Source: Candidatus Bathyarchaeota archaeon
GTDB taxonomy: Archaea; Thermoproteota; Bathyarchaeia; 40CM-2-53-6; CAVXDP01
Assembly (NCBI GenBank): GCA_963760485.1
Contig: CAVXDP010000015.1
Coordinates: 137,389 to 201,388, forward strand
Direction: 5' to 3'
DNA: 64,000 bases
Part shown: positions 10,215-34,956 of the stretch, in pieces
How positions within the stretch are numbered: the first letter of the stretch is position 1
How the letters are laid out: the number at the start of each line of letters is the position of its first letter
Translations under genes and position numbers: made by a program
The notes under the pieces: generated by a model
Told to the model about the DNA's origin: nothing
The model's database searches: none
What the model saw: only the letters and a program-made list of their open reading frames with translations

Positions 10215-11072
10215 ATGACTTTCGCTGCAGCTAATGGGAAGGAAAAAGTAATGAGTTTACCACCGTCGACATGGCAAGAGCATTGGTTCGAACATAATCA
10301 ACTAGTGAAACTCAAGTACTATGACGATTTTGTTGCAGTGTACTTCGATGACGACATGAGAGAAGCAGAGTCTTCTTGGCTCTATCAATACATGAGCACT
10401 CTTGCACAATATACAAAGTCACACTATGGCGATATTCGTTCGGATAGACTATACGCCATCTTCCACAAGGGGAAATACGGAGGAGGTCACCCCTCATACT
10501 ACTACGATGGAAGCCATGACTTCAGAAATGTGATTGATTGCGGGTCTGATAATTGGCAGGCTCCATCTACTTCTAGTCCATCTTGGCAATTTGATGGTCC
10601 TTCTCATGAAGTGGCTCACATAATCGAGTCTACGGTACACGGAAAACACAACTCTCCATGTTTTGGTCTATGGAATGATAGCAAGTGGGCAGAATTCTTC
10701 CAATATGGCTTCTACAAAGACATCGGTATGACGACATATGCTCAGACTAAATACAACGAATTCATGTCAAAATCTGATGATTATCCTCGGCCGGGCACTC
10801 AATGGTTCAGAAAGTGGTTTTCAATCCTCTATTCTACTTATGGAGGATCCAAGTGCATGAGAGAGTTCTATCATATGATAGATCAGTATTGGCCATATCA
10901 AAACAAGTCGATGAATTGGGGAGAGTTAATTCATTTCATGAGCGCAGCTGTTGGAACTGATCTAAAGTTTCCAGCTGAAGCTGCATTTGGCTGGTCTAGT
11001 GAATGGGAAGATCAATACCAACAAGCCATGCTCGTCTACAAATTTACTACTACGCCTGACGGCTCAACGTGA
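10215..11072 (+). CDS. HExxH-motif protein, a putative zinc metallopeptidase with no signal peptide; first cargo gene of the island
   Basis: The 285-aa ORF contains SHEVAHIIESTVHGKH (HExxH). After the stop at 11070, a second frame stays open to a TAA embedded in repeat A (11237-11239), so the true 3' end is uncertain. Confidence 0.45.
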   Translation: MTFAAANGKEKVMSLPPSTWQEHWFEHNQLVKLKYYDDFVAVYFDDDMREAESSWLYQYMSTLAQYTKSHYGDIRSDRLYAIFHKGKYGGGHPSYYYDGSHDFRNVIDCGSDNWQAPSTSSPSWQFDGPSHEVAHIIESTVHGKHNSPCFGLWNDSKWAEFFQYGFYKDIGMTTYAQTKYNEFMSKSDDYPRPGTQWFRKWFSILYSTYGGSKCMREFYHMIDQYWPYQNKSMNWGELIHFMSAAVGTDLKFPAEAAFGWSSEWEDQYQQAMLVYKFTTTPDGST

Positions 11073-11216
11073 CTGGGCCTTATCATCATGATGATGGGGT
11101 TCGGCTTACCGCTATTCCTGCTCTCGCTGAATGGTCTGATGCCTTAACGGGTAAGAACGCCGAAAAATTCTACAAATTCCAGAGTATACCAGTACTCATC
11201 CACTGTCTCCATATGG

Positions 11217-11259
11217 AGAGAACAGTTTAACCCCGACGATAACGTGGGACAAGATCCCA
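11217..11259 (+). repeat. Island repeat copy A: conserved box GAGAACAGTTTAACCCCGACGATAACG plus hairpin TGGGA-CAAGA-TCCCA
   Basis: Direct sequence reading: a 5-bp perfect stem immediately after the conserved box. Confidence 0.8.
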
Positions 11260-11337
11260 GTCGAGGCGCTATTTCGGCTTTTGACCTGTATTGCCATGTT
11301 CTTTTGGTCGCGGTACGAAGGTATTCCTTAGATCTGT

Positions 11338-11445
11338 CTAATATGAGTCTCGCATGTCTGATTTCCTCAGCCTGATGTTGCAGAAGGGGCATATTGGCTG
11401 GTAATCAGAGAACTGAGTCTTACATCGATCGCAATACCAACCCAT
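11338..11445 (-). CDS. Mini-ORF (35 aa) with CxxC...CxxC zinc-ribbon spacing (MGWYCDRCKTQFSDYQPICPFCNIRLRK...)
   Basis: Hand-translated; it lies 41 nt downstream of the RHH ORF on the same strand. It is below the ORF-track size cutoff. Weak. Confidence 0.2.
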   Translation of the reverse strand: MGWYCDRCKTQFSDYQPICPFCNIRLRKSDMRDSY

Positions 11446-11486
11446 TAGATGACCCTTCCACTGGATTGAAACAAGTGCGCATGCAT

Positions 11487-11630
11487 CTATTTTTCCTTGG
11501 CAACCCACGTTTTTACGGATTCTTCGACAGCTCTAGATAGGTCGCCCTTTTTCCCACCAAATCTCTCAATAGTCTTAAACCTTAACTTCTTTTCCAGCTC
11601 ATCAGAGAGTTCCACACTGATTCGACCCAT
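11487..11630 (-). CDS. Ribbon-helix-helix (CopG/Arc/MetJ-like) small protein, 47 aa
   Basis: Hand-translated: MGRISVELSDELEKKLRFKTIERFGGKKGDLSRAVEESVKTWVAKEK. The ISVxLxDEL N-terminal beta-strand and following helices are typical of RHH antitoxins/regulators. It is below the ORF-track size cutoff. Confidence 0.4.
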   Translation of the reverse strand: MGRISVELSDELEKKLRFKTIERFGGKKGDLSRAVEESVKTWVAKEK

Positions 11631-12310
11631 TCCAATCACCAACATCAATCTTTATGCAGGATTTGCAGACGTCAGGCGTTCTTCCAGTAAGCAAAATCGT
11701 GGATGCCCGCTGTTGCTTTTCTTGTTATCATTTTCATTCACCCAACGTTTGCTTACCCACCTATCCATATATGTGCTTACCAGCCTATAAGGATATTGGT
11801 TTAATGGTCATCGGGGTTAAACTACAGTTCCTCAACTCACGAGTGTGCAATATACGGCGCCTAAGAGATCTAATGCGATTCGCTAGGGCCTGTTGTTTTC
11901 TGCTCTCTTTCTTTCTCTCATCTTCTATCTATCAGGATCGTAAGGGTGCTTCGGGCTGGTTTCCAAAATAATAATCTGGATTAGAAGGAATAGGTATTGT
12001 ACAAGCGGGTTATAGAAATATCATAGAAGGTGGAAGACGTGAAACATCGAAAGCATGAGAAAGCTCAATCCTACGACAGAATGGGTTACCTCGTATTATT
12101 CAAGGATGGAACAATTCTACCACTTGTGGACAAACCCAACGCCAAAGAAATCGAGCAAATCTTCTGTTAGACTAGAGTCACCATTATTCTGCTAACCCGT
12201 TTGTATGTAAGTCCGGGCCGGCCGAGACAACAACAGATTGTCTGTGAATCCTCTTCTTCAATGTAACATGAGATCTGTAATGTGAGGGACGGCAAGATTA
12301 TATTGGGAAG

Positions 12311-12760
12311 GTGCAAGCGTGCTTTTCCAAGGTATGCATCTTGGCTAAGGAACCAATCTATAAAAGAACGCTTTTGGACCTGGCAGCCGCTTTCTTTCTG
12401 ATAGGCGGAGTCGTCGCCCTAGCTAGTACAATCGTTATGATTCCTATCGCTACAGTCTATCCATTCACACTGAGAGCAGTGACTTTCGTTACACTGGTCG
12501 TACTGGTTGTAGGCATTATTTGTGCCGTGGAAGCTCTGGAATGCTACAGCTTTGCGTCCAAGAGACTACTGCTAAAGGCTGGGATGAGGGGTATAATCGT
12601 TGGAGCAATCCTCCTCAGTCTAAGCGTAGGCCTGATAGGAATACAAGATGTCAGAACCCAGCTGGTGGCCGGAAGCGCGATTCTGATGATAATAGGCGGA
12701 GTGATATGCTATATCTACAGGGAGCCAACGATTGACTTCCACGCTAAAAAGGAGAAGTAG
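12311..12760 (+). CDS. Integral membrane protein (about 4 TM helices), hypothetical
   Basis: The 149-aa ORF is strongly hydrophobic; the start codon is uncertain (GTG at 12311). Confidence 0.35.
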   Translation: MQACFSKVCILAKEPIYKRTLLDLAAAFFLIGGVVALASTIVMIPIATVYPFTLRAVTFVTLVVLVVGIICAVEALECYSFASKRLLLKAGMRGIIVGAILLSLSVGLIGIQDVRTQLVAGSAILMIIGGVICYIYREPTIDFHAKKEK

Positions 12761-12791
12761 AAAAGCATTCTCTGAAACGCTAGGACAACCA

Positions 12792-13511
12792 ATGGCGATT
12801 ATATCTATGAAAAACAAACGCGGGATACTGTCTTTATGTATAATTATTTTGTTCATTTTGGGATCGCTAAACCTCAGTCTCATAGTTGCAGCCGTGTCCA
12901 GTGGCGAATGTTACACAACCAAACGAACTTACCAGTATGGTGAGAATGTGATTGTCAATATCGCCACGTCAACGGGGATCAACAATACCAGAGTGTTGAT
13001 CTATCTCCCAAACGAAGAGGTTAACACCTTTACTATCGGCAGACTTGGCACTGGCGCATGGCAGTTTTCAATAGGTCCCGCGGGGTCTCCAATTGGCCAA
13101 AGGATGGTAGTGTTGTTGGACGGTTCAACAACTCTTTCAACAACCTACTATACGGTTGTTCAATCCTCTTCAACAACTACCATAACCGTTGCTACGGCAA
13201 CAAGAACATTGACGGGAACCGTTACGCAAACCTACACAGTCACCCGATTCACAACAACTTTTCAAACAACAACCGAATATCAGACATCAACAGTATCCAG
13301 AACTAAGACCGAATCCTCTACGGTGACGATGCAGACCACGACGGTCACAACCCAGTATCAGACGCTATCCACGTCCAGTACCGTTACGCAGATGTACACG
13401 ATCATTTTGCCAATACTGGGTCCAATGACTCTTGTTTACACATTGTTAGCAGTGATAGTCCTTCTCATCTTTGCCATAGTATTTGTAGCTTCGAAAATGG
13501 CCAAAAAATAG
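12792..13511 (+). CDS. Secreted/surface protein with signal peptide, Thr-rich stalk and C-terminal TM anchor
   Basis: The product starts MAIISMKNKRGILSLCIIILFILGSLNLSLIVAA (signal-like). It has a long T/V/Q-rich low-complexity tract (TVTQTYTVTRFTTTFQTTTEYQTSTVS...) and a C-terminal hydrophobic helix with a KK tail. Confidence 0.5.
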   Translation: MAIISMKNKRGILSLCIIILFILGSLNLSLIVAAVSSGECYTTKRTYQYGENVIVNIATSTGINNTRVLIYLPNEEVNTFTIGRLGTGAWQFSIGPAGSPIGQRMVVLLDGSTTLSTTYYTVVQSSSTTTITVATATRTLTGTVTQTYTVTRFTTTFQTTTEYQTSTVSRTKTESSTVTMQTTTVTTQYQTLSTSSTVTQMYTIILPILGPMTLVYTLLAVIVLLIFAIVFVASKMAKK

Positions 13512-13900
13512 TTGCTCATAGAGATGGCATCTTCGGATTCGCTAAGGTGTTGGGTCGTGAGAAGAGAATAGTTCTACTTTGTTTTTCTCGGTTGGCAAGC
13601 AAACTGGCGAGTGCAAGATACTCTCTGTCAGTATCGCTTACCAGTCTTCTTCACTGGGTTGTTCGTCCTCTTCTTCCACGTCTTTTTCTTCGTCCATTCT
13701 GATTATCACCGAAACGAGCGACCATCCCTTCTAGCTAATAATACTTATGATTACTAAGCATGGGCTTTTTCCGGGTGAACAAACTTTCAACAAGAGTAGC
13801 ACGTTTTCTAGGACACCAATTCGATGAGAGAAAACAAATCGCTGAAAGAATGGCTGAGTTCTATGATAAGCGAAGTGCAGTGGTACACGGTGAGAATGTT

Positions 13901-13944
13901 GAAAAGCAGTTTAACCCCGACGTTATCGTTGGTTAAGATCCCAA
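13901..13944 (+). repeat. Island repeat copy B: GAAAAGCAGTTTAACCCCGACGTTATCG plus hairpin TTGG-TTAAGATC-CCAA
   Basis: Direct reading. The stem sequence differs from copy A but pairing is retained. Confidence 0.75.
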
Positions 13945-14045
13945 TCCTCTTGGGTAACGTTTTGCCAGGTTGGTTTCGGTTAGCATCAGACGATCTCTCA
14001 CTCAACAGAGCAAACTCAATTGTAGCCAGCATCGAATTGAGTTGG

Positions 14046-14066
14046 TTTATCCCCGACGATATATCC
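14046..14066 (+). repeat. Island repeat partial copy B': TTTATCCCCGACGATATATCC
   Basis: Direct reading. It shares the CCCCGACGATA core, lies about 100 bp after copy B, and is preceded by the 7-bp inverted repeat CTCAATT...AATTGAG. Confidence 0.5.
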
Positions 14067-14134
14067 GATTAAAGAGATCTAATCATTTGATATGATCCTG
14101 ACGCAGCTCTTAAGTTAGGGACAACGAAACCAAT

Positions 14135-14608
14135 GTGTGGCGAATATGTTTGGTCAAAGAGGGAGATAAGGCTCCGGACTTCACTTTGCAGGCAGATGAT
14201 GGACGTGAAGTGTCACTCAAAGATTATCAAGGTAAGAAAGTAGTTCTCTATTTCTATCCAAAAGATGACACTCCTGGTTGTACTCGTGAAGCTGCTGAGT
14301 TTAGGGACACAATAAAAGAGTTGGAGAACGAGAACGCTGTAATAGTCGGCGTGAGCAAAGACAGTGTTGAATCCCATAAGAAATTCAAGGAAAAGTATGG
14401 GCTACCTTTTACATTGCTTAGCGATCCTGAAGCCAAAGTCTTAAGACTCTATGAGGTTTGGAAAAAGAAAAGCCTCTATGGTCGCGAGATGATGGGTACA
14501 GAGCGAACCACCTTCCTGATAGATGAGAAGGGGATAGTCAAGAAAGTATATCGGAAGGTGAAGGTTGAAGGACACGCAAAAGCCTGTCTGATGGACTTGA
14601 AGTCTTGA
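14135..14608 (+). CDS. bcp: Peroxiredoxin, Bcp/PrxQ-type thiol peroxidase
   Basis: It has KAPDFTL, YFYPKDDTPGCTREA (peroxidatic Cys) and the AhpC/TSA fold. The true start is probably TTG at 14150 (MVKEGDKAPDF). Confidence 0.8.
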   Translation: MWRICLVKEGDKAPDFTLQADDGREVSLKDYQGKKVVLYFYPKDDTPGCTREAAEFRDTIKELENENAVIVGVSKDSVESHKKFKEKYGLPFTLLSDPEAKVLRLYEVWKKKSLYGREMMGTERTTFLIDEKGIVKKVYRKVKVEGHAKACLMDLKS

Positions 14609-14723
14609 TGCGTAGAGCGCCTAACTTGTCGTAGGTTTCCATCTTCTTCTTCGACTATATGCCCATTCAATCTGATCCGGTGCAGTCCAGAAGCATATAC
14701 CTGCGCAATCACAGCATGTATAC

Positions 14724-15044
14724 TCAGCGAAACCAATGTTGAAGTTCGATGACATTGCCCTCGGGGTCAGTAACGTAGACGATTCTAGCCTTACCTGCAC
14801 CATCGATCTCCGTGGTAACGATTTTTCCAACATCGCTGCCACCTGCTGCAATCACTGCATCATGTGCTTGGTCCACATCATCTACTGCAAACGCAATGTG
14901 GCCAAAACCGGGGCGATTGACAGCGGTTCCAGGCTTTTCGGTCTCAACATCGTACTGAAAAATCTCGATCGTTGGACCAGTGTTACCGTAACCCGGCGCA
15001 CGCAAGTGTGCGCCACGAATATGAGCAGATCTTATGCTTGTCAC
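14724..15044 (-). CDS. Glyoxalase/bleomycin-resistance (VOC) family protein
   Basis: The 106-aa product has HIAFAVDDVDQAHDAVIAAGG ... DPEGNVIELQ, typical of the VOC superfamily. Confidence 0.7.
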   Translation of the reverse strand: MTSIRSAHIRGAHLRAPGYGNTGPTIEIFQYDVETEKPGTAVNRPGFGHIAFAVDDVDQAHDAVIAAGGSDVGKIVTTEIDGAGKARIVYVTDPEGNVIELQHWFR

Positions 15045-15284
15045 GTCATCCAGCCACTGACCTGAGAGATCACGCTCAGGCGGAACTAGTGCGCAGCCAA
15101 AGACCTCAATGTAAAACTTGGCAAGACGTTTCCAATCTTGCGCAACGATGTTCGTGTGAACAAATCTAGCATTTGAAACAGTTCCCGTTTTCTACTCCTC
15201 CTCAACCACTACCATATGGACTGAACTGGGATCTAGACGATGTTCATGTATTACTCCTGTACACGATTGAAAACGTTTTGTCCC

Positions 15285-15321
15285 GAAAAACAGTTTAACC
15301 CAGACGATAACGTGAGATAGG
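15285..15321 (+). repeat. Island repeat copy C: GAAAAACAGTTTAACCCAGACGATAACGTGAGATAGG, with a degenerate hairpin
   Basis: Direct reading. The box has C to A at one position and the downstream hairpin is lost. Confidence 0.65.
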
Positions 15322-15431
15322 TGCAGGAACCAGTTGGTATCAGTTGGCGGGTAATGCTTACGCGCCATTCGGAGCCGTCTTAACAGAAAGCACAGGTGAC
15401 TTGATATTCGGAATCAACTTCACCCAGTTGA

Positions 15432-18400
15432 ACCCCCAAGCAACGGATCAGTACTTTATACTATGGTCTAACGATTTATCTGCCACCGGAATTCAAGCCG
15501 CCAGTGGACTGGGCAACGGCTGACACTTCGAATATTATTACGACCATTACAAACGATTACAGCGTCATCTACGTTTGGAAGGCCGATGTGAAAGATCCCT
15601 TCGGACCGGGCTGGTGGGTTATCTACATACGTGCCCCCGGCGGTGGAGAATCCTCACACTCCATTATGATTTTCTCGCATGATAACGGATACAAGGAATG
15701 GTACTATGTTCGTGTGAACGGTATGACTGCGCCTAAGATTGCTGGTCGATACTTTTTCAAAATGTTCCTTGGCGAAAGCTATCCAATCATGAATGCGGTT
15801 AATCGTGACGGTTCCACCGTGAACCCGGACAGATTGCCGGTGCTGAACACGATGCCTGCGGAGAACTGGCCTGTAATGCTTGTGAAAGGTGAAGTTGATC
15901 CAGGCATTATTGAAGGGACAATTCGCTACGGTGCATGGAACCAAGCATTATACAATAAACCAATTCAACTTCCAGGCCGAGTTCGTGCGGTTGGAGTTGC
16001 AGATGACCCCTATACTGGTGCTAGTACAGGTCGTGCAGTTGAAGCTCGTGGATACTTTAACGCCTCAGCGAAAGGTCACTATGAGGTTGAAGGTGTAGCT
16101 CCAGGGGTCTATGACATTTATGCGAGTGCAGCTGGATACCCGGAAATGAAAGTTGCAAGCGGTGTAAAGATTATTGCAGGTAAAAGTTTCCACATGGATT
16201 TTCTATTGCAACCAGGTCCAATCATTACAGGTGTAATCTATAGCAAACACAGCTTCGGAGAAGTTAGCATGGTCGAGTACACGTCCAGTAACAGTAGAAA
16301 TCTATGACAGCAACGAATGGCCAGTAGCGAAACCAGGTTATGGCTGGGATTCTGCTGGAAATATCATTTGAACAGGGAACAGGCGAAGTATGGACTGATA
16401 TGGGTTACAAAGTTGTTAATGCACACCTGAAGAGTTTCTCACCAATCAATTTGACCCAAGCACCATTCACAAGTTATGTAGACTGGAAACGTAATCTATG
16501 ATCCAGCTAAAGGCTACGCTGATCTTCTGCACCCTGGCACTGTTTCGTTTTCTAGTCTAAGGGAATGTTCCTGGTGGACAACCTAAGCTAGTTGCATTTC
16601 CATGGGAGGGTCCCAAGAATCCATCGAGTTGCTTTACCATCAAGTTTCCTGGGGTCATGAATGAGTACTCTGATATTCCAGATGATCTAACGTCTCAGAA
16701 AGATAATTATGGCTTGTTCAATGGGGTTGGTCCAGCGCAGTACTGGTGGGTTGACAAACTAGGCCAATGGACGAATGGTGGCGGATCAAATAGTTTCCGT
16801 TATCAATTTGGAATCAAAGGATACTACGGTGCACCAATGGAATTCGACGGTCACATGCCACAAGTCTGTGCAAGCTGGGTTAACGGGTTGACCGCAGGCA
16901 CATACTACCTCCGTTCATGGATCAATGGCTACGTCCAAACTGATGTTAGCGGCACATACGTAGATTATCCATTCAGTGTCGCGGCACAGGAATGGGCTGG
17001 TGACATTAACACTCCAATGGACCTTGAAACGTCAAGCTGGATCAACAAGACTGTACACTTCCACGATTTGCCAGGCACCTTGCAGACAAGTCCGATTCGC
17101 GGACCAGATCCCTACAGGTACATGATCGCTGAAGCATACGACGCAGACAATGTGCTTGTTGCAATGAACTTTACACAGGTTCCAGTGAAAGACCGATACG
17201 GCAATCTAGTGAGTGACTGGAACATTACATTGAACGGATTCGGAATGGCAGGGCCGGTCTACATTATTCCGTCTGATTTATGGGTTGACTGAAGTGATTC
17301 TCGATGGTATTCCACCGGGCATGAAGTTCTTCCTGTACAGGTATAGGCATATCCGTGATTATGGCATGATGCCAGGCACTTACACGATCCGCGTCTACAT
17401 GAGAGGCTATGTGCAACAAGAATTTGAGATGGCTTCAATTAGTTTGAGCCAAAGTCCAGCGATAATCAGCAACCACATGTATCGTGGAGCAGGAATCAAC
17501 ATGACTATCTACTCAATTGACTGGGAGCATCCACGCGTCGACAGGCCATGGAACTTTCCATGGCGATGACATAAGAGTTCACGTGTTCAATGAGGCAGGA
17601 GACGACATGGGCCTACGTCAGATGGTGGGATGGGACGACAGGCCAACTATAGATACTTGGGTTGTGCCCAACACAGACTCAGCGGTAGCACAGTAGTTCC
17701 AAGCAAGGATTGGCCTGCACCAGCCCGGCTAGTAAGCTCAAGTTCAACGGTTCAACAGTTCTAGAAGTTTATGGACCGGACACGGGTGGTGGCTGGTTCC
17801 CATTCCGCTCTTAACTTTACACTTCCAATCTTAACGGCCCTGGCAGTACAGATGCGGGGACTGGTATATGGCTTGAATTCGGTTATTATAGAAGCGGGTT
17901 CTTGACAAGTCCAAACCTGTACAGAACTGCTGATCTGAAGACAAGGGTTGCCTTAGAAACTGGTACATACGACGCTTAAGGCGTGGACGCTTGGTTACGT
18001 CCAGAAGAAGGATATCACAGTCTACGCGCAGAAAGGATCACAGGCAGATACCAAGCTCAACCTAGTCATAGGCGTGAACATGACGGTTAACATCAAATTC
18101 AAGAAGGAAGGCATCTTCACACACGTACCATTTGACCAATCCTTTAGGATAAGAGTCTTCGACGATAACAATGGGCTAGTTGCCACATGGTACACCAGCT
18201 ATCTTCGATGATAGTACCTTCTACCATGGCGTGCTTCCACGATGCGGTCAACAGAGCCTACGGTGGATTCATGGAAAGGGGACCAGTGACATAATTCTGA
18301 GCGACGAATGAAGACTTTGGTCAGAGACAGCACCACCGACCTACAGGTTGTACTGGCTGGAAACTACTACTACTTCGAAATCAACAGCTATGGCTATGTT

Positions 18401-19062
18401 CCATTTGAAGAAAGAAACTATGCTCTATCCAGGGCTAATGGAATCGATGGGTGGCCGAATTATCAGGGTACTTGGCGCATCGAGGTTGATGCAGTCAACC
18501 TGGTACTATAGCGACAAGTGGTTCCCAGCTCCTCCAGGCCTGCTACTTGGTGAAAGCTACCACATAATCAACGGCGTCGAAGGACCGTACAACGGCATGT
18601 GGAAGTATAACCATCTTGGCCCATGGGAACAGAAGATGGTTGTTACAGTGCCAAATGCTCACTTGGGAGCTGAAGCAAGCGTCGTCTTCGAACTAGACCA
18701 ACGAGGCCTAGTCTCAGGACAAATCGCAGGATTCAGTTGGAGTGACGAACTCCGTCCAACAAGTTGGGCAACAATCACAGGCAGCTGGTGCAGGCGGGAC
18801 CTTCACAGTCTACTCGGCAGACGGATACTATGACATGTACCTTCCAGCAGGCAGCTACGAATTCAGCGTCATGGAAAGCCCAGGACACGCAGCAAAGAGC
18901 GCAAGCATAACCGTCAGTACAGGCCAACAAGTGACAGGATATAGCTTCTACTTAGAAAGAACCAACGTTCCAATTCCAGAATTCGGACCAGTCATAGCAC
19001 TAGTAGCAGCACTCGGAGCATCACTGTACGTGCTACGGAGAAACCGCAAAAAGGGCAACTAG
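15432..19062 (+). pseudogene. Giant surface protein (about 1200 aa if joined) with a PEF-CTERM-like C-terminal sorting tail. It is fragmented across at least six ORFs in three frames: 15504..16307, 16657..17292, 17285..17569, 18308..18511, 18348..18833 and 18742..19062
   Basis: Coding-like translation hops between frames, with stretches of 350 and 740 nt lacking any long ORF. The C-terminus is ...NVPIPEFGPVIALVAALGASLYVLRRNRKKGN (PEF, then TM helix, then basic tail). The disruption density is several-fold higher than in neighbouring genes. Genuine decay or mis-assembly of a hypervariable gene cannot be distinguished from sequence alone. Confidence 0.4.
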
Positions 19063-19234: not shown

Positions 19235-19929
19235 CGGCCCCCTCATCGCTAGGAATGATTCTAACAGGTAAGAGTGGCGATTTCAATCCTCTGAAACTAC
19301 CACACGATTACGTACCTCACCTGAATTTCCACTGCAGACGCGACAATTTCCTCTGCAGAAAAAGGCTCGTGATGGAGTATTAGCCTAGCTCCAAAGCCGC
19401 TGGGAGCGCCTTCAGACATAGCGTTCAGAGCAATTCCACCAGAAACAGAAAACGAAGCATGAACTGAAACTGGAAGTTCGATGCTTATCGTGCAATCCCC
19501 AATTCATTACTTTGCCTCTTTGATAATGTACTCTACAGCAGACAAGAAGCTATCTGCAACAGCTGTTGGTTCTACTTCCTTTTCTTGGAGTTCTGCAAGG
19601 TATTTGTTTCCGTGTCCAGTAAGAGGCTGTTTTGCACCCGGCATTCTTGCCCATAACAATGTCAGAAAGGTGATCGCCGATAGCTCATGACCCTACTGAT
19701 TCAATTCCGTACAGTGTAACTATTTTGTCGTTGCGTTTAGTGCTGGGGGGCGTTTGAGGCCGATAGATTTCTGACTGCTACTCGATACAGAGTTTTACGT
19801 AATGATACATAATTTTAGTTTAGAGCTAGGCGCCGAAGCCTTCTCGGCTTATATACAACAGAAACCTATACAATTTTTTAAACTAAACCTAACCATTAGT
19901 TGTCTTTGCTTTACTTCTGAGGGATCCAG

Positions 19930-22197
19930 TTGCAGTCCACAAGTAGAATAAGCGTAGAAGTGTTTGACGCAGCCTCCGCTCCGGTGCGTATGCAGATTCT
20001 CAAGCTTCTATCTTCGAAAGGGGCGTTTGCCTACACAGAGATAATGTCGTCGATAAAGCTGGATCCGATTAGAGATGCTGGAAAATTCGTCTACCATCTT
20101 AAGAGTCTCGTGGAAGCAGGGCTTTTAGACATTGACAAGGAGACAAAGAAGTACTCAATAACTGAACTGGGAAAGATGGTTGTCGGTTTTGGTAGAGATG
20201 TGGAGGAGTATGTCGCTGTCAAAAAGGGGAGATTACTCGTTAGAACCTCACGTTTCTCCATTGAGGAGTTTGACCGAGACAAGATCAGGGTTTCTCTTGT
20301 TCGCGAGGCAGGCGTCCCACATGAACTTGCGCAGGACTTGGCGGTAGAGGTTGAGGAGCGTCTTCTAAAGTCTAAGACTAGGTACCTCACGGCGCCTCTT
20401 ATACGTGAACTGATAAACTCAATCTTGGTTGAGAAGAAACTCGAGGATTACCGCCATAAACTGACAAGGCTTGGTATGCCAGTCTACGACGTTACTCAAC
20501 TAATGAATGAATCAAGCGATCGATTGCTTGACGTCAACTCGGTCAAGGAATCTGCAGGTTCATCTGTTCTGGAAGAATACGTATTGCTGAATGGGATTCC
20601 GCGAGATGTTGCGGACGCTCATCTCTCAGGCCAACTGTATCTCGGATTTTTAGATGATTGGATCTTGAAACCCGAGGAAGTTCAACATGATCTTCGCTTC
20701 TTCTTCAAGAAAGGATCAGCTATCTTCAATCCTCCACACAGTTTTCAGTCAGGCCTTGCAATATTAGAAAGAGTATCCAACCTTTGCTCTGCGGAAGTCT
20801 CTGGTGATCAATCATTCGATATGTTCAACGTATTCTTCGCGCCGTTCGTGGAGGGCATGAGAAAGGACAAGGTGTCTGAAACTCTCCAGGTCTTCTTTAA
20901 TGGGCTGAATAGATGGCTCGGCTCCAACATATCGAGGTTTCCCATCTCGTTTGGAATAGAACTTGCGGTTCCAAGCTATTTGGAGAAAGTTGATGCCGTT
21001 GGAATCGATGGGAAAATAACTGGAACCTATGGGGACTTTCGAAACGAGACCAAAGCATTGGCTGAAGCGATTATTGATGCAATCCATGATATCGCATCTC
21101 ACCAACTACTGCTCAATCCACGTTTTGTCTTCAAAATAAGGAAAAAGATGTTGAATGACCCAAACTTCGAGCCCTTGATCTCGAGTATCTATAGCTTGGC
21201 TGGGAAATATGCACTGCCGAATCTTGTTATCCTCGAAGACAATACCCGATTATCTTGCACTTCCAGTGGCCTAAAGCTTGGTGACGATTGGAAGGGAGAT
21301 TGGCAAACAAGCTGCATTCGGACGGGGAACCTTGGCACAGTGTTCCTCAACCTACCCAGAATCGCCTATGAAGCTCACAGAGACGACGAGCATATGTTCA
21401 AGATACTCTCAGATACCATGAAGATAACTGTGGAAGCCTTCAAATCAAAACGTGTAGCTATCGGTGACAGGATGAAACAGGGACTCCTTCCAGTACTATC
21501 AAACACATTTGACAGTTCTCCATATTTCTTTCAAAACAATGGATCATATTCGATGAGTTACGTTGGATTGACCGAGGCAGTAAAGTACCACACAGGAGGC
21601 GAACTGTACAAAGACGACAGTGCAATGAAGTTTGCATCAACAATCCTGTCGAAGATAACTCAGGAGGCGAAAACAATTTCCGAGGAATTGGAAATGCGCC
21701 TGCAAATCGCGCAAAGACCTGGTGATGACGCCGCAACTAGACTCGCTGAACTCGACATGGAGAAGTATGGTCGAGCCACGACTGTGGTTGAGGGTACCCG
21801 CAGTCACCCTTGCTACACGGAGCTTACGGTTCTACCCGCGTCAGTTAAGATTCTGATTCGAGACAGAGCACGAGTAGAGAGCAGGTTCCAAGCAGCGACC
21901 CCGGGAGGACACTTGCTTCCTGTGAATCTAACGCCCAAAGAGCATGACTCACGAACTATTCATAAGCTTAGTTCAGAGGTCCTATCTGAGAATATCCTGT
22001 GTTTCACCTACGCAAACACCTTCTCTTATTGTAGGGGCTGCGGAGATTATGCCGTAGGAATCACTTCAAAATGCCCCAGATGCAACTCCACATTGATCAC
22101 CCACGTAGGACGATGCTCTGCAACTTACGAACCGTTCGCCATATGGCCCGAGGCGAAAAGAAGGACTGTTGAGAAAAGGGTTTGCTATCCCTCATAG
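19930..22197 (+). CDS. NrdD-like (class III anaerobic ribonucleotide reductase family) protein with N-terminal ArsR-like wHTH, ATP-cone and C-terminal Zn ribbon. No recognisable glycyl-radical RxCGY motif
   Basis: The N-terminus has a wHTH (ILKLLSSKGAFAYTEIMSSIKLD...YHLKSLVEAGLL). An ATP-cone follows (VRTSRFSIEEFDRDKIRVSLVREAG...). An NrdD-like HLSGQLYLGFLDD segment is present, and the C-terminus has CRGC...CPRC. Where RVCGY is expected the sequence reads GRCSATYEP, and the protein ends ...EKRVCYPS. Confidence 0.55.
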   Translation: MQSTSRISVEVFDAASAPVRMQILKLLSSKGAFAYTEIMSSIKLDPIRDAGKFVYHLKSLVEAGLLDIDKETKKYSITELGKMVVGFGRDVEEYVAVKKGRLLVRTSRFSIEEFDRDKIRVSLVREAGVPHELAQDLAVEVEERLLKSKTRYLTAPLIRELINSILVEKKLEDYRHKLTRLGMPVYDVTQLMNESSDRLLDVNSVKESAGSSVLEEYVLLNGIPRDVADAHLSGQLYLGFLDDWILKPEEVQHDLRFFFKKGSAIFNPPHSFQSGLAILERVSNLCSAEVSGDQSFDMFNVFFAPFVEGMRKDKVSETLQVFFNGLNRWLGSNISRFPISFGIELAVPSYLEKVDAVGIDGKITGTYGDFRNETKALAEAIIDAIHDIASHQLLLNPRFVFKIRKKMLNDPNFEPLISSIYSLAGKYALPNLVILEDNTRLSCTSSGLKLGDDWKGDWQTSCIRTGNLGTVFLNLPRIAYEAHRDDEHMFKILSDTMKITVEAFKSKRVAIGDRMKQGLLPVLSNTFDSSPYFFQNNGSYSMSYVGLTEAVKYHTGGELYKDDSAMKFASTILSKITQEAKTISEELEMRLQIAQRPGDDAATRLAELDMEKYGRATTVVEGTRSHPCYTELTVLPASVKILIRDRARVESRFQAATPGGHLLPVNLTPKEHDSRTIHKLSSEVLSENILCFTYANTFSYCRGCGDYAVGITSKCPRCNSTLITHVGRCSATYEPFAIWPEAKRRTVEKRVCYPS

Positions 22198-22206
22198 AAC
22201 CGTCGT

Positions 22207-23394
22207 CTATCGGGTAGCCGCTAGCGCTACGACCGCCAGAATCGCCATTATTCCTCCATACATGAAAGTTACGTTTGGAGAGATAGCACTCCAAAGAAGT
22301 CCAGCGATAATGCTTGCAGGCAAATCGGCAATTCCATTGATGGTATGCAACGTGCCGTAGCCGGTACCTCGAAGGTCAGCTTGAACAAGGTCGGCGGTGT
22401 ACGCTCTCTCTAGGGTGTCAACAGAAGCCGAAAAGAAACCAGCAAGAACAAACAATCCAGCAATCATGAAGATATCACTGGTTACAAACATGAACCCGAA
22501 ACACGCTAACCCAAACGCAAAGTAACCAACACCTAGCAGTACACGCTTACCAATCCTATCGCTCAATACACCTATTGGAAGAGATGACGCCGCGTAGATT
22601 ACGTTCATCAATGCATAAAGGAGGATTGTGATTTGTAAAGCGGCGATGCTGCCAAACTTCGGAGTCAACAGGATATTTGTATTCAATATGAAGAAGGCGT
22701 TACTGAAATTACCCAGACCAAATACTAGCACGGCCAGCAACAACTTCTTGAATTTGCTCGGGAAAGTTTTCATCCCTACATCCAGCCGAAGTTCTTTGAC
22801 AGGGGCCTTCGATTTTTCTTGAACGAAGAATAGTAGGATCGCTACGGAGATTAAACCTGGAACTAGCGACCAAGCGAAGACGCCGCGATAAAGATAGACT
22901 GGAAGGAGGACAAAAGCCAGTGCGGGGCCTACAACAGCACCCGCAGTGTCTAATGCACGATGAAGGCCGAACGTACGTCCCGTTCTAGAAGATGAGGTTG
23001 AATCTGCAATCAAAGCATCCCTCGGTGCCGTTCTAATCCCTTTGCCAACCCTGTCAAAGAACCTGAGGCCTAGTACCTGAGGCCAACTGTTGGAGATAGC
23101 AATAAGTGGTTTAACTGAGGTTGAGAGACCGTATCCTAGCGTAGTAAGAGGTTTTCGTTTGCCTGTTCGATCACTTAACCAGCCAGATACAACTTTCAGT
23201 AGACTAGATGTTGAGTCACTTACTCCTTCAATTGTGCCTAGTATCGCAGCAGAAGCTCCCAGTTCGGAGACAAGGAACATAGGTAGAATCGCAACGATCA
23301 TCTCTGTACTGATATCCGTGAAGAGACTGACTAGGCCCAGTGCAAGAACGTTCATCGATACTCCAAGAACCATGTTGTTCCTAGAATTGGACAA
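22207..23394 (-). CDS. MFS (major facilitator superfamily) transporter
   Basis: The 395-aa product has 12 predicted TM helices and MFS-like loop motifs (GWLSDRTGKRKPL; DRIGKRV). Confidence 0.75.
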   Translation of the reverse strand: MSNSRNNMVLGVSMNVLALGLVSLFTDISTEMIVAILPMFLVSELGASAAILGTIEGVSDSTSSLLKVVSGWLSDRTGKRKPLTTLGYGLSTSVKPLIAISNSWPQVLGLRFFDRVGKGIRTAPRDALIADSTSSSRTGRTFGLHRALDTAGAVVGPALAFVLLPVYLYRGVFAWSLVPGLISVAILLFFVQEKSKAPVKELRLDVGMKTFPSKFKKLLLAVLVFGLGNFSNAFFILNTNILLTPKFGSIAALQITILLYALMNVIYAASSLPIGVLSDRIGKRVLLGVGYFAFGLACFGFMFVTSDIFMIAGLFVLAGFFSASVDTLERAYTADLVQADLRGTGYGTLHTINGIADLPASIIAGLLWSAISPNVTFMYGGIMAILAVVALAATR

Positions 23395-24103: not shown

Positions 24104-24412
24104 ATGAACAGAATATCGATACTGGTGGACAAGAAGATGGCTGCATATCTCGAGTTGCCGAAGAACATAGGCATCTCGGTGGCGTCGGGGAGAAATGACG
24201 CAGTACGCAGATTCAAAAGGCTGCGTTGTGATAATGACATTTCAATTATCATGGTTTCTAGAAGAGTCTTGGATTGGATAGAACAGCCCCTGTCGATGTG
24301 CACTGAGCAAGGCGGATGTCCGTTTGTTGTATCTCTTATCAACAAGGGTGGCCCAAGGACCCAGGCTAGACATGTTTCAAGGTTACTGGGAAAAATTGTT
24401 GAATCAACCTAG
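24104..24412 (+). CDS. V-type ATPase subunit F-like paralog
   Basis: ISILVDKKMAAYLEL...IGISVAS...DISIIMVSRRVLDWIEQ aligns with the bona fide AtpF at 63410 (VAIIADKYLATGFRLAGV...YDIIIMTEKLAMALKRE). It stands alone next to the P-type ATPase. Confidence 0.4.
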   Translation: MNRISILVDKKMAAYLELPKNIGISVASGRNDAVRRFKRLRCDNDISIIMVSRRVLDWIEQPLSMCTEQGGCPFVVSLINKGGPRTQARHVSRLLGKIVEST

Positions 24413-27194
24413 GGTCGCCGGCTAGTTCTCTTTTTGTCAACAGATATACTTGAAGCGGTGATTCGAGTCAGGTGCTTTCGAACCTCCTCGGCTACTAGTG
24501 GAAGAGGCGCGAGTAGGAGGAGAACCGCCCAGTTTTGGATTGTTAGTGGATACGTTCCAAAAATGGTCTGGAGAGGAGGAAGGTAGACGATTCCAGATAA
24601 TATTATGATTTGGGATGCAATCCCGAACCAGATCCACTTGTTACTGAAGGGCTTCACCTCTGAAATTGACGTTCTTCCAGTTCTACACGCAAACAGGTTC
24701 GCAGATTGCGCCACGACGATTCCAGCAAGGGTCATCGTGGTCCCCTGCCGATAAACTGGGTTATCTGAAGCTAGTCCCAACCCAAATCTCCATCCTCCAG
24801 CAATCCAAACAAGGAAACAACCAGTCAAGGACACTAGAGACACGAATATTCCAAGGAAAAGAGATCTTGCGATCGTTTTGGAATCGAAGAGTCTTTCTTT
24901 TGGACTTCGTGGAGGTCTATTCATGATGTGAGGTTCTGGGGGTTCGATGCTCAAGGCCAATGATGGAATGACCTCTATACCCAAATCGATTGCAAGAACT
25001 TGAGTGACAAGTAGTGGGAGTGGGATTCCGACTAGGACAAAAAGCAGGTAAGGTATCAGTTCGGCCCAGTTGTGCGCGAAGACATACGTTATGAACTTTC
25101 GTATGTTGTCATAGATTGCTCTGCCGCCTTCGATAGCCTTTGAGATCGATGCAAAACTATCGTCAAGCAAGATCATATCCGCAGATTCTCTTGCAACATC
25201 GGTGCCAGCCACACCCATCGCTACACCTATGTCCGCTTTCTTCAAAGAGGGCGCGTCGTTGGCTCCATCACCTGTGACCGCGACAATCTCTCCCATCGAC
25301 TTGAGTAGGGACACGATCCGCATCTTGTGTTCTGGCGTTGCTCTTGCAAAGATTATTTCTCCGGCATCAATCTGCCTGATCAAGTCGGGCTCAGTGAGTT
25401 TGTCCAGTTGGGCTCCAGTCAATACCGTACATTTTTCCGTCTCAACGATCCCTACTTGTCGGGCTATCGTGAGTGCGGTAGGTCCATAATCTCCCGTAAT
25501 CAAGATGACCCTTATGCCCGCCTTCTTCGCGTCCATGACGGCTTTTCTAACCTCGGGTCTGGGCGGGTCTAGGATTCCAAGAAGACCAATGAATACAAGA
25601 TCTGTTTCAACGGTATCGACATTCCATTCATGCAAGTCGGGTGGTAGTTTCCGATAGGCCACTGCCAGAACGCGGAGACCCTCCTCACCAAGTCTCCTTT
25701 TTTCAAGATTTATCTGATCAATATCTTCCTGAGCTAATGGGTGCACCTCAGACCCGTCAAGAACATGGGAACAGACATTGAGTGTCTCTTTTGGAGCTCC
25801 TTTGACGTAGGCGATGTTGCCGTCCTTTGTCTTGTGAATTGAAGACATCCTTTTTCTTATGGATTCGAATGGCAAGAGTTTGACTAATGGTGCATCAACT
25901 AGTTCGTTCTGCACGTTCAAATCCATCTTCAACGCCAATGTCAGAAGCGAGCCTTCAGTCGGGTCTCCAAGTACTCGCCACTGGCCACTTGTATCCGTAG
26001 GTGGAATCAGTTTCGAACTATTGCAGAGCGACGATGCCTTGAGGAGTATTTCTACACCTTTTCTCTCGCCGAGCTCTAGTTTCCGATCTCCAATGAGTAG
26101 TTCTCCTGATGGGCCGTAACCCTCGCCGGTCACGTCAATCGTTTCACCATCTATCCAGATCTTCTTGACTGTCATTTCTCCTTTGGTTATTGTTCCCGTC
26201 TTGTCGGTGCAGATCACTGTGGTGCTGCCGAGAGTCTCCACTGCTGAAAGCCTCTTGACTAGAACATTCTGCCGGGCGAGTCGAACAACTCCGAGGGCTA
26301 GCGCGGTTGACACAGTAACCTGCAAACCCTCTGGAACACATGCAACCATGACGCCTATCATGAAAAGGAATCCTGTTAGTGCATTCATGTGGAACCAGAG
26401 TGTATCCACCATGAAGAATAGTACCCCAACAGTGATCGCGATCACAAAGTCGATCTTGCGGCGTGCGATATCTGGTTCTGAAGTGGACTAACCGTATCTT
26501 CTATTGACTCGCTCATACCGGCAATTTTTCCAAATTGAGTTCTCATTCCGGTGTCATACACAACCGCTCTTCCAAAGCCCGACGCCACGGTGACTCCCAT
26601 GAACACAAGGTTCGTTACGTCGAGCCAACTTGCGGTTTCTGCCTGCATGGGATCAGCGTCTCTGGGTTGCGCCTCCGACTCTCCTGTTAGGGCGACGTTA
26701 TTCGTAGAGAGATCAAAAGCTTCCACAACACGTGCGTCTGCTGGAACGCGATCACCTTCATTTAGAATCAGTAAGTCTCCAGGGGCGATATCCTCAGCCT
26801 GGATTACCTTGGTTTCACCGTCCCTTACAACAGTCGCACGAAAAGGCAGGAATCTTTTAAGGGCCTTTACCGCCCTTTCAGCACGATATTCTTGAACGAA
26901 ACTCAATATTGCATTTAGAATAACCACCACAAGAACTGAAATGCCAAACTCAACCATGCCAGTTACGAAAGCCAAAATAGCGGCTATTATCAGGAGAGCG
27001 CTAAAGAGATCTTTGAACTGAGAAAGAAACTTGTTGAGAGCTGCTGCCCGCTTTGGTTCAGACAGCCGGTTCGGGCCGTACTCCTGCAGTCTCTTTTGAG
27101 CTTCGTCTTCTGTTAATCCTGTTGATCTTGTCTCTAACCTCTTGAGTACATCTGAAACCGGCCATGTATAGATTGGCAAAGAGTCCTTCACCAC
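24409..27194 (-). CDS. P-type cation-transporting ATPase (about 925 aa), split into two ORFs (26442..27194 N-terminal, 24409..26445 C-terminal), consistent with a single-base indel near 26445-26470
   Basis: The N-terminal ORF carries TGES (NVALTGESEAQP) and the TPLQ-like SPLQNQI segment. The C-terminal ORF carries PEGL, DKTGTIT, TGDGANDAPSL and GVAGTDVA. The ORFs overlap by 4 nt in different frames. Confidence 0.8.
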
Positions 27195-33931: not shown

Positions 33932-34931
33932 TCTCTAATTTGGTAGAAGCTGTTTCCACAATTACTCTACGATCGTTTGTAACCCTGCCAACAACTTGTG
34001 ATCCCTTAATGATGGTGAGTGTCTTTCTTTCATCCGCCCTTGGAACCACCATCAAGAATCCAGTTCCCATGTTGAAGGTTCGGTACATCTCTCTGTCAGT
34101 GACTTTCCCTTGTCTCTGTATGAGTTTGAAAATCTCTTGCGGTTGGAATAGATCATCAAGATAGAAACCCACATTCGCTCTAGTTCCGATTCTCTTCAGT
34201 TTCGAGTATGCGCCTCCTGTTATGTGTGCCATTCCGTGAACGTGTACTCTGGATCTCAAGAGCTCCATTATCGGTTTCACGTAGATGCGTGTCGGAGTTA
34301 GAAGCATTTCAGCGACGTGTCGACTAAACTTCTTAAGAAGGATTTTTCTGGCAAGGGTCAAGCCGTTACTGTGTATTCCAGTACTTGAGAGACCAATTAT
34401 TGAATCTCCAACTTCTATTCTGGTGCCGTCGACAATTCTGTCTTTTCTAACCACTCCAATGCTCGTCGCTGAGAGGTCGAAACCCTCTATGACATCAGGC
34501 ATAATAGCGGTCTCGCCTGAAACGATCGCTACACCAGATTCTAGAGCGCCTCGGCGAAGCCCTTTCATCACGCCTTCGATTAGTCTTTCGTTGGGTTTCT
34601 CCAATGCAAGATAATCCACAAGTGCAACTGGTTCAGCCCCAACGCATATGATGTCGTTAACGTTCATCGCTACACAGTCGATTCCCACACCTTCATATTC
34701 TCCCAACATGAGCGCTACGAGAACCTTCGTTCCTACTCCATCGCTGTGAAGTGCCAGTGCTTGTCCCTTGCCTATGTCTATCAAACCGGCATAGTGCCCT
34801 CTAATGTCCAGTACCTTGCCAAATCTTCCTTTTCGTGTTGAGAAAGTCTCGGAGGCGATTTTGTCGATATCTCCGTGAATCTTCTTGACCTTTCTAATGT
34901 CAACGCCCGCTTTTGCATATGTGAAGCTCAT
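33918..34931 (-). CDS. purM: Phosphoribosylformylglycinamidine cyclo-ligase (AIR synthetase)
   Basis: The 337-aa product matches the PurM family (GVDIRK..., GIDCVAMNVNDI). Confidence 0.9.
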   Translation of the reverse strand: MSFTYAKAGVDIRKVKKIHGDIDKIASETFSTRKGRFGKVLDIRGHYAGLIDIGKGQALALHSDGVGTKVLVALMLGEYEGVGIDCVAMNVNDIICVGAEPVALVDYLALEKPNERLIEGVMKGLRRGALESGVAIVSGETAIMPDVIEGFDLSATSIGVVRKDRIVDGTRIEVGDSIIGLSSTGIHSNGLTLARKILLKKFSRHVAEMLLTPTRIYVKPIMELLRSRVHVHGMAHITGGAYSKLKRIGTRANVGFYLDDLFQPQEIFKLIQRQGKVTDREMYRTFNMGTGFLMVVPRADERKTLTIIKGSQVVGRVTNDRRVIVETASTKLEIERW

Positions 34932-34956
34932 TACTGGGTCAGCTACTGCCGCATTG

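Follow-up and report, generated by a model that had tools for sequence, protein, structure and literature searches.

In bacteria, ribonucleotide reductase (RNR) operons are repressed by NrdR, a protein that combines a zinc ribbon with an ATP-cone and that has been described for most bacteria but only some archaea (PMC9110341). How archaea control their RNR genes is largely unknown. The general idea that an enzyme homologue can be turned into a ligand-sensing transcription factor is already known, from NrtR and from the logic of NrdR itself. Here we describe a gene at positions 19930..22197 (+) of a 64,000-nt stretch of Candidatus Bathyarchaeota archaeon DNA (contig CAVXDP010000015.1; the whole stretch is hereafter the window). 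To judge from its sequence, the gene encodes a paralogue of archaeal NrdD, the class III RNR, that has kept the fold, the zinc ribbon and the ATP-cone of the enzyme and has acquired an ArsR-type winged helix. We think it probable that the protein is a pseudo-enzyme that acts on RNR genes as an autoregulated and probably nucleotide-sensing transcription factor, an archaeal counterpart of NrdR made from a dead NrdD. What would be new is the use of a dead RNR as a sensor module, together with the breadth of the family across Thermoproteota. We found no description of the family, of DUF7347 or of a fusion of a winged helix-turn-helix (wHTH) to NrdD in open-access papers and preprints, which leaves room for one in other publications; the relevant passages of a 2026 glycyl radical enzyme (GRE) review do not mention the family.

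The open reading frame (ORF) is complete, starts with TTG and encodes 755 residues. A Shine-Dalgarno-like GAGGGA, read from the sequence at 19919..19924 (+), lies 5 nt ahead of the start codon, and GGAGG- or GGCGG-like motifs occupy the equivalent spot in homologous loci. From the N-terminus, the protein comprises a wHTH, an ATP-cone, an inactivated NrdD barrel, a zinc ribbon and a degenerate glycyl-radical tail. The ArsR-type winged helix (residues 10-98; 19957..20223, +) has the topology a1-a2-a3-aR-b-b-a5, with helices at 4-15, 18-30, 35-41, 50-62 and 79-98 and strands at 66-69 and 74-77 according to DSSP of the AlphaFold2 (AF2) model described below. Pfam DUF7347, a winged helix, matched residues 10-86 with 33.2 bits against a cutoff of 27.6. 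HTH_20 scored slightly under its cutoff (26.1 versus 27 bits) and NCBIfam HTH_metalloreg matched with E = 1.2e-4. The recognition helix, which reads ...DAGKFVYHLKSLVEAGLL, carries the invariant D49-A-G-K-F-V-Y-H-L57, and the sequence YHLKSLVEAGLL satisfies the recognition-helix pattern HL+xLxxAGL.

The remaining domains are those of an archaeal NrdD. Pfam ATP-cone (PF03477) matched residues 104-174 with 26.7 bits against a gathering cutoff of 25.8, within a cone that spans residues 104-180 (20239..20469, +). Its motif is V-R-T-S-R instead of the classical V-x-K-R-D-G. This variant, VRTSR...E.F...KI, is common to canonical archaeal NrdD cones and is inherited from them: in a set of 120 canonical archaeal NrdDs, roughly half fit the cone pattern, almost always with VRTS[RK]. 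In the version of the protein found in ammonia oxidisers, the ATP-cone hit was recorded with no mark of weakness. Residues 208-753 (20551..22188, +) form an NrdD-type ten-stranded alpha/beta barrel with its C-terminal domain, a region that preserves structural residues but has a remodelled active site. This region matched Pfam NRDD (PF13597) with 238 bits over profile positions 15-562 of 562. By contrast, the score against the NCBIfam NrdD equivalog TIGR02487 was 253.8 bits, under the cutoff of 326.35; the ammonia-oxidiser version scored 61.9 bits. The zinc ribbon, C701-x2-C704 ... C715-x2-C718 (22030..22083, +), has four cysteines that are all invariant in the family.

Class III RNRs are the closest solved structures by sequence. 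An AF2 model built on 42 family members had a predicted local distance difference test score (pLDDT) of 84.4 and a predicted template modelling score (pTM) of 0.82, and its top 36 Foldseek matches were all NrdD structures. The best superpositions were with the NrdDs of P. copri, T. maritima, S. thermophilus and T4, with target-normalised template modelling scores of 0.72-0.75. According to the model, the NrdD fold is retained in the dead paralogue.

To examine the catalytic residues, we aligned 206 Bathyarchaeial family members with E. coli NrdD, Methanobacterium virus PhiF1 NrdD and 12 canonical Bathyarchaeial NrdDs; the HMMER alignment of the T. maritima NrdD chain begins only at residue 363. 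The degenerate glycyl-radical loop of the window protein, R728-C-S-A-T-Y-E-P735 (22111..22134, +), aligned to RIVGYLVP of T. maritima, and likewise to RVTGY of PhiF1 and RVCGY of E. coli, so placed that Ala731 stands for the radical Gly and Thr732 for the conserved Tyr. The Ala731 codon, GCA at 22120-22122, is one base from a Gly codon. At the radical-Gly position (E. coli G681), the 206 members have Ala (91), Ser (49), Tyr (43), Gly (13) or, in the remainder, Asn, Phe, Cys or Val. The Gly of the 13 Gly-bearing members lies within an unrelated motif, AKYAGRLIP, and these proteins have Asp or Glu at the thiyl position and no Cys partner. In the finger loop, C443-TSSGLKL-450 (21256..21279, +), Ser446 (21265-21267) occupies the position of the thiyl-radical Cys (E. 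coli C384), where the family has Thr (159), Ser (26), Asp (12) or Glu (4) and in no case Cys. The adjacent Cys443 of the window protein is unconserved, most members having Tyr there. Glu250 (20677..20679, +) takes the place of the second active-site Cys (E. coli C175, T. maritima C125), a residue shared by every known RNR (PMC4493059); 186 of the 206 members have Glu at this position and none has Cys. The complete set of two Cys and Gly thus occurs in 0/206 members.

The substrate-binding residues have fared similarly. The NxN flap, whose substrate role is known from other work (PMC11226230), is now S195-S196-D197 (20512..20520, +) and reads [A/T/S]-x-[E/D] in the family. The triphosphate-binding HxHD motif (PMC4493059) is now Y237-L-G-F240 (20638..20649, +); the family has H-I-x-N, and the window protein additionally lacks the Asp. 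Comparison of 120 family members with 120 canonical archaeal NrdDs gave the same picture: ENxN was present in 0 versus 119 and HxH[DE] in 0 versus 118. RxTGY occurred in all 120 canonical proteins and QCCR in 106, and neither occurred in the family at the radical-loop position or the finger-loop tip, respectively; the few family matches to the Gly and Cys motifs fall away from these two sites. Nor did a motif search reveal a CCR or GCR motif homologous to the finger-loop tip in the family members examined. Among the canonical archaeal NrdD matches, several of Archaeoglobales type (1137-1172 residues) exceed the usual length by about 450 residues, with intein/homing-endonuclease domains (PF14890, PF14528 and PF05204) lying within the reductase. 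Of 55 positions identical in four divergent canonical lineages, about 30 are kept in the family, including structural Gly and Pro residues, the four zinc cysteines, NLPRIA, R604, Y629 and GG659-660. About 20 are systematically replaced, among them both Asn of NxN, the second His of HxHD, GQTPF, YxNS and the Tyr after the radical Gly. The helix N-terminus that receives the alpha and beta phosphates (P597..R604..D609) and the NLPRIA strand are retained, and acidic residues have entered the former active site at Glu250, Asp599 and position 631 (Asp in 197 of the 206, Glu in the window protein).

Because the catalytic set is kept by none of the members examined, whether the 206 from Bathyarchaeia, the 114 representatives of clusters or the 109 of ammonia-oxidiser type, the loss of catalytic residues is a trait of the family and not an assembly error. 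An assembly error behind the Gly-to-Ala change was considered separately, given the frameshifts in other genes of the window, and was ruled out because seven relatives of 73-80% identity carry the same motif, GR[CS]SA[TA]YEP. These results bear out the first-pass annotation of the window, which had read from the letters a 755-residue protein with an ArsR-like wHTH, an ATP-cone, a class III RNR body and a CxxC...CxxC ribbon, no radical Gly at GRCSATYEP and the C-terminus ...EKRVCYPS. They also go beyond it: the alignment placed no conserved Gly in the radical loop, and it added the thiyl Cys, the second Cys, the NxN flap and HxHD to the list of losses.

The same architecture is found in more than 120 full-length homologues with 45-80% identity to the whole protein, and an identical protein exists in public databases. 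A pattern scan of one genome per GTDB species identified relatives in 270 genomes, the best 80 of the 270 being essentially all Bathyarchaeia. We also searched the N-terminal 190 residues against 1.8 billion cluster representatives. At a threshold of E <= 1e-3 there were 801 clusters, and at E <= 1e-30 there were 126; almost all represent the N-termini of NrdD-like proteins or fragments thereof. Among 114 representatives of at least 520 residues (50%-identity clusters), the C-termini were highly variable, many ending just after the zinc ribbon or even ahead of it, and none had the catalytic set. By source name, members occur in Bathyarchaeia, Conexivisphaerales, Candidatus Caldarchaeum, Nitrososphaeraceae and Nitrosopumilales, and include a 584-residue protein of the cultivated Conexivisphaera calida (WP_174447857.1). 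Their database labels are 'anaerobic ribonucleoside-triphosphate reductase', 'ArsR family transcriptional regulator' (the NCBI name of some members), 'DUF7347 domain-containing protein' and hypothetical protein. One metagenome-assembled genome, MFD02248.bin.2.124, has two copies of the family gene on separate contigs (L034 and L038), each with the promoter element described below.

The Nitrososphaeraceae and Nitrosopumilales are obligately aerobic ammonia oxidisers. Their versions are about 702 residues long, and all 109 ammonia-oxidiser-type sequences end 4-13 residues past the last CxxC; the glycyl-radical loop is therefore deleted. It is also deleted in several Bathyarchaeial members. In the complete genome CP070683.1, a 702-residue member (locus L213, 3577-5685) ends directly after the zinc ribbon (…CPECGSTNIVSFKN*). 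An O2-sensitive GRE would make little sense in aerobic ammonia oxidisers. Mean column identity in the Bathyarchaeial alignment was highest in the cone (0.85), followed by the wHTH (0.79), and lowest in the barrel (0.59), and the recognition helix DAGKFVYHL is invariant in the family. Selection has therefore been strongest on the DNA-binding and cone module, and not on the old enzyme.

We investigated the genomic context by clustering ORFs across 89 loci. In 13 of 86 Bathyarchaeial family loci, an intact canonical nrdD lies directly downstream on the same strand. The encoded NrdDs carry QCCR, ENAN, HxH[DE] and either RITGYY or RVVGYL. Loci L065 and L079 are arranged as regulator, nrdD and nrdG, and their activase matched the NrdG2 equivalog with 194 bits (cutoff 131). 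When canonical Bathyarchaeial NrdDs were taken as the starting point, the tandem with the family gene appeared on two of the three long contigs (complete genome CP070683.1 and L214); on the third, complete genome CP070730.1, nrdD is isolated, with no paralogue adjoining. The Nitrososphaeraceae version of the gene precedes nrdJ by 400 nt on the same strand. This NrdJ is a 907-residue, adenosylcobalamin-dependent enzyme that scored 777 bits against TIGR02504 (cutoff 400). The gene thus stands in tandem with nrdD, nrdD-nrdG or nrdJ, and therefore tracks the real RNR of the cell whatever its class. No activase adjoined the family gene in the 86 loci except where it accompanied a canonical NrdD, and no class II RNR was found in the Bathyarchaeial family loci, the only matches being cone to cone. 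In five deep-branching loci (L075, L090, L091, L077 and L073), the family gene is immediately preceded by a tRNA-Pro gene of opposite orientation, a conserved divergent arrangement.

Upstream of the family gene, a 19-nt element of consensus AACTACAATTTTTTAAACA is kept amid otherwise wholly diverged sequence. It consists of a T6A3C core resembling a TFB recognition element and TATA box (BRE/TATA) and a 5' (A/C)TACA box. The window copy, CTATACAATTTTTTAAACT (19866..19884, +), is the sole match in the window, and its T6 run begins 56 nt before the start codon. TATACAA occurs here twice, at 19852-19858 and 19867-19873 (+), as a direct repeat with an offset of 15 nt; the downstream copy supplies the 5' box of the element, and the two are candidate operator half-sites. 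Of 63 non-redundant promoters, 57 have a T6 run that starts 36-63 nt ahead of the start codon. Where the spacing is shortest, in one clade, about 25-30 nt separate the element from the start codon, which fits a BRE/TATA with a leaderless transcript.

To determine how specific the element is, we derived a position weight matrix (PWM) from 52 distinct 19-mers, the spacings above having been counted in the 63 promoters, and scanned both strands of 1.55 Mb at a threshold of at least 23 bits. The matches were 76 upstream of family genes, four upstream of canonical nrdD (L065/L079 and L214/L215), two just downstream of the family gene (L073/L077) and one elsewhere; the best score beyond this set was under 19 bits. 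The promoter of the isolated nrdD of CP070730.1 reads AACTACAAAATTTTATACA, a 16/19 match to the element. In L213, the promoter of the family gene itself lacks the T6A3C element, and the nrdD just downstream has the variant AACTACAGAATTTTATACAG. The canonical nrdD variants take the form of a direct repeat, TACA(A/G)-N7-TACA(A/G). With a looser pattern, there were 53 matches in 2 x 1.4 Mb, 41 of them at promoters of the family gene or canonical nrdD. A scan of metagenome contigs added no regulon targets among the matches listed: 115 of the 120 were on contigs without the family gene, were mostly AT-rich and had no connection with it, and five were on contigs with it. That the element is merely a generic strong promoter was ruled out, since tRNA promoters in the same DNA differ and 1.4 Mb of flanking DNA is almost devoid of other copies. 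Overall, the promoter sequences make a good case for joint regulation of nrdD and the family gene. The shared element is also compatible with autoregulation, while not proving which protein binds it.

Two further observations concern these promoters. Upstream of the Nitrososphaeraceae nrdJ (L217, about 12180-12500), a 7-3-7 inverted repeat occurs twice, once as GAGCTAA-GCT-TTAGCTC and once as a near copy, AAGCTAGGCTTTAGCTG, about 30 nt before the ATG; the repeat could serve the ammonia-oxidiser form of the regulator as an operator. In L073 (2677-3010) and L077 (4972-5300), the element just downstream of the family gene is followed by about 330 nt of conserved non-coding DNA that contains TATACA-N6-TGTATA and has no nrdD after it. 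A search of Rfam with the L073 stretch gave zero matches; the stretch may be a relic nrdD promoter or a small RNA.

We infer from these data a mechanism that would be shared by the family. The NrdD barrel is predicted to hold a dimer together, and the two winged helices would bind the TACA box and T-rich element where it overlaps the BRE/TATA core promoter. The promoters bound would be those of the gene itself and of the real RNR genes, which in Bathyarchaeia are nrdD, with or without nrdG, and in ammonia oxidisers nrdJ. Occupancy may be tuned by ATP and dATP, or by the deoxynucleotide (dNTP) pool, acting on the cone, and possibly also by a ligand in the remodelled barrel pocket. When deoxynucleotides are plentiful, the RNR genes and the regulator's own gene would be repressed, such that RNR expression would follow the nucleotide pool. 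The window would then hold only the regulator and its own promoter element, the target genes lying elsewhere in the genome. The first-pass annotation had offered a dead NrdD repurposed as a nucleotide-sensing transcription factor as one of two possibilities. The residue losses, the conservation of the wHTH and cone, the adjacency to RNR genes and the shared element all favour it.

More broadly, and with some hesitation about the proposal as a whole, the family could be the hitherto missing master regulator that governs deoxyribonucleotide synthesis over much of the Archaea, namely in Bathyarchaeia, Conexivisphaerales, Caldarchaeales and ammonia-oxidising Nitrososphaeria. As tentatively framed, a dead class III RNR would sense ATP and dATP, perhaps dNTPs, through its cone and the old allosteric sites, and its winged helix would repress its own gene together with nrdDG in anaerobes or nrdJ in aerobes. 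The family would then be a convergent analogue of NrdR and the first case of a GRE fold used as a sensor.

Several observations weigh against a nucleotide-sensing regulator of RNR genes. The cone lacks the classical KRDG, reading RTSR, and passes the Pfam threshold by less than 1 bit; ATP or dATP binding is therefore not assured. The element lacks the clear dyad symmetry that is usual in the sites of ArsR-type dimers. A different, co-regulating factor might bind it, or it might simply be an unusually constrained BRE/TATA, and it is absent from the Nitrososphaeraceae locus. The synteny is also limited: nrdD occurs within 10 kb in only 13 of the 86 Bathyarchaeial loci, and the adjacency to nrdJ comes from a single lineage represented by three near-identical contigs. 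The window itself contains no RNR, pyrB, pyrI or nrdG gene, so for this genome the functional link is by homology only. Finally, the conserved acidic replacements in the barrel (E250, D599 and position 631) could signal a new catalytic or ligand function.

The gene neighbourhood points to one alternative, which we consider unlikely: that the protein regulates pyrimidine or nucleoside genes (the aspartate transcarbamoylase genes pyrB/pyrI, a nucleoside phosphorylase, a nucleoside ABC transporter), and not RNR, in response to a ligand other than ATP or dATP bound in the barrel. A convergent pyrB lies within 5 kb in 45 of 61 loci with sufficient flank, and pyrI in 41. A clade of nine loci has a divergent nucleoside phosphorylase gene (PNP_UDP_1) directly upstream and a Bmp-type nucleoside ABC transporter downstream. 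Close relatives of the window gene adjoin QueT and PyrI, a QueT transporter gene lies 1.3 kb downstream of the family gene in the window, and an OTCace gene is found 5 kb downstream in the Nitrososphaeraceae locus. However, the pyrB-pyrI intergenic regions contain neither the element nor any TACA or T-rich box, and carry a 'GGTTAAATAA' box of their own; it is canonical nrdD that shares the element. Moreover, pyrB is convergent, hence not co-transcribed with the family gene, and gene order within one class can be inherited without a functional link.

Improbable on present data is a second alternative, in which the protein is a non-catalytic partner: the dead barrel would heterodimerise with an active NrdD, or act as a nucleotide buffer or scaffold, with the winged helix serving protein contacts or non-specific DNA tethering. 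NrdD dimerises through barrel helices (PMC4493059), the structural residues of the barrel are retained, and the paralogue is often in tandem with nrdD. Yet the family exists where no NrdD does, the neighbouring RNR in Nitrososphaeraceae being of class II, and the nrdD of CP070730.1 has no adjoining paralogue. A partner protein would also not account for an ArsR-type recognition helix that is the most conserved part of the protein, or for a specific cis-element conserved at the family promoter.

Slightly more doubtful again is the idea of a 'trigger enzyme', whose remodelled pocket (E250, D599 and, in most members, Asp631) would catalyse a new, non-radical reaction on a nucleotide-like substrate that the winged helix couples to transcription. 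In its favour, the replacements are themselves conserved (Glu in 186 and Asp in 197 of the 206 members), and both the phosphate-binding helix N-terminus and the NLPRIA strand are kept. On the other hand, the barrel is the least conserved region of the protein, the acidic positions vary widely across the wider family and many lineages have only a truncated form of the C-terminal domain, the part that closes the active site. In the literature searched, there was no precedent for a non-radical enzyme on the NrdD fold.

The other possibility raised in the first-pass annotation, a divergent RNR with a different radical chemistry, is rejected. In its most concrete form, an aminoacyl-radical NrdD that carries an alanyl or seryl radical and is activated by an NrdG encoded elsewhere, it is very improbable. 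In its favour, pyruvate formate-lyase (PFL)-type enzymes can carry the radical on Ala, Ser or Thr, according to a survey from which class III RNRs were left out (PMC11528403). In the window protein the Gly position is occupied by Ala, and in crystals of T. maritima NrdD there is no Cys at the finger-loop tip (PMC4493059). Against this, Cys is present at the thiyl or bottom position in 0/206 members, whereas the first-noticed aminoacyl-radical enzymes (AAREs) kept their catalytic Cys. The former Gly position is unconstrained (A/S/Y/G/N/F/C/V), NxN and HxHD are lost, the loop is deleted in whole clades, such activases as lie nearby accompany intact canonical NrdDs and the family is found in aerobes. 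As for an artefact, either an ordinary nrdD hit by sequencing errors or a decaying pseudogene, the window does hold frameshifted genes, but the chance is negligible for an ORF intact across 755 codons that has an identical public counterpart, relatives of 73-80% identity with the same motifs, further relatives encoded by 270 GTDB species genomes and a strongly conserved N-terminal module.

The surroundings of the gene in the window are as follows. Its neighbour is a major facilitator superfamily (MFS) transporter gene on the other strand (22207-23394, -), as first noted, with the QueT gene beyond it. Also as first noted, no NrdG is adjacent: tblastn queries with two activases (E. coli NrdG and a Bathyarchaeial NrdG2) and two reductases (a canonical NrdD from Bathyarchaeia and an archaeal NrdJ) revealed no further NrdG, NrdD or NrdJ in the 64 kb. 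A complete-looking string of purine genes (33918-42750, -), in the transcription order purQ, purL, purF, purD, purN, folD, purE, purM, lies 12 kb from the family gene and lacks the promoter element. Two genes are split into overlapping ORFs: a P-type cation ATPase (24409-27194, -) into 24409-26445 and 26442-27194, and a TldD/PmbA peptidase (32479-33931, -) into 32479-32916 and 32900-33931. These splits are either frameshifts typical of an error-prone assembly or real pseudogenes. A run of same-strand ORF fragments with CarboxypepD_reg-like domains (10215-19062, +) ends in a hydrophobic anchor (…PIPEFGPVIALVAALGASLYVLRRNRKKGN) that matched PGF-CTERM with 22.5 bits, slightly under the cutoff of 24.5. 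The fragments probably belong to a single large surface protein that is frameshifted and bears a sorting signal of the archaeosortase type. A default ARAGORN run on the window detected zero tRNAs. With the intron option, ARAGORN called a tRNA-Leu at 47163-47278, corresponding to an intron-containing tRNA that Rfam placed at 47164-47277 (+) with 51 bits, and a second intron-containing tRNA, a tRNA-Ser at 44607-44776 (+), seen only with this option.

If the protein is indeed a nucleotide-sensing regulator of RNR genes, it would clearly exemplify the reuse of a radical enzyme's fold as a sensor domain, with a bearing on how pseudo-enzymes arise from essential enzymes after duplication. For the control of archaeal RNR genes, the family offers a concrete candidate with a predicted operator, and cultivable hosts exist in Conexivisphaera calida and in cultured Nitrososphaeraceae strains. 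There is also a consequence for annotation. Hundreds of genomes label the protein 'anaerobic ribonucleoside-triphosphate reductase', and metabolic reconstructions that infer anaerobic dNTP synthesis from it, in Bathyarchaeia and even in aerobic ammonia oxidisers, are wrong unless a canonical nrdD is also present. The family likewise sets a limit on the aminoacyl-radical idea, in that a Gly-to-Ala change in a GRE homologue is insufficient for calling an alanyl radical enzyme.

Of the described systems, the family is closest to NrdD (PF13597, TIGR02487). It shares homology over the full profile, a ten-stranded barrel with a finger loop, the same four-Cys zinc ribbon and the N-terminal VRTSR variant of the ATP-cone, and the window protein has 30% identity to the Bathyarchaeial canonical NrdD that often adjoins the family gene. 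It differs in the replacement of the radical Gly and the next Tyr, the thiyl and bottom Cys, NxN, the second His and the Asp of HxHD, GQTPF and YxNS, in a glycyl-radical domain that is variable or, in many lineages, deleted, and in the extra N-terminal winged helix. Unlike NrdD, it falls under the equivalog cutoff and is present in aerobes without NrdG. By these sequence criteria, the family is related to NrdD without belonging to it functionally.

With the AAREs (Fu et al. 2024, PMC11528403), the family shares the status of a GRE homologue with Ala or Ser for the radical Gly. AAREs, however, use partner activating enzymes, and the first-noticed ones kept the catalytic Cys (PMC11528403), whereas the family lacks that Cys, has an unconstrained former Gly position, has lost the flanking Tyr and has no partner activase. 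A different kind of likeness is offered by ArsR/SmtB-type winged-helix regulators with a fused effector domain and by enzyme-derived regulators such as NrtR (PMC2330246), which share a one-component design: a wHTH joined to an enzyme-derived ligand-binding domain, Nudix-like in NrtR. Like NrtR, the family has members that databases mis-annotate as the ancestral enzyme. In contrast to both NrtR and the ArsR/SmtB regulators, the effector module of the family would be a whole RNR barrel with an ATP-cone, which has not been described as a sensor.

The parallel with NrdR is one of functional analogy only. In both, a DNA-binding domain is fused to an ATP-cone; the family gene is linked to RNR genes of different classes, and its element is common to nrdD promoters. 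Homology is limited to the cone: the DNA-binding domain would be an ArsR-type wHTH and not the N-terminal zinc ribbon of NrdR, the family carries a 550-residue dead RNR body and its cis-element is unrelated to NrdR boxes. By this analogy, the family would work like NrdR while belonging to no NrdR family.

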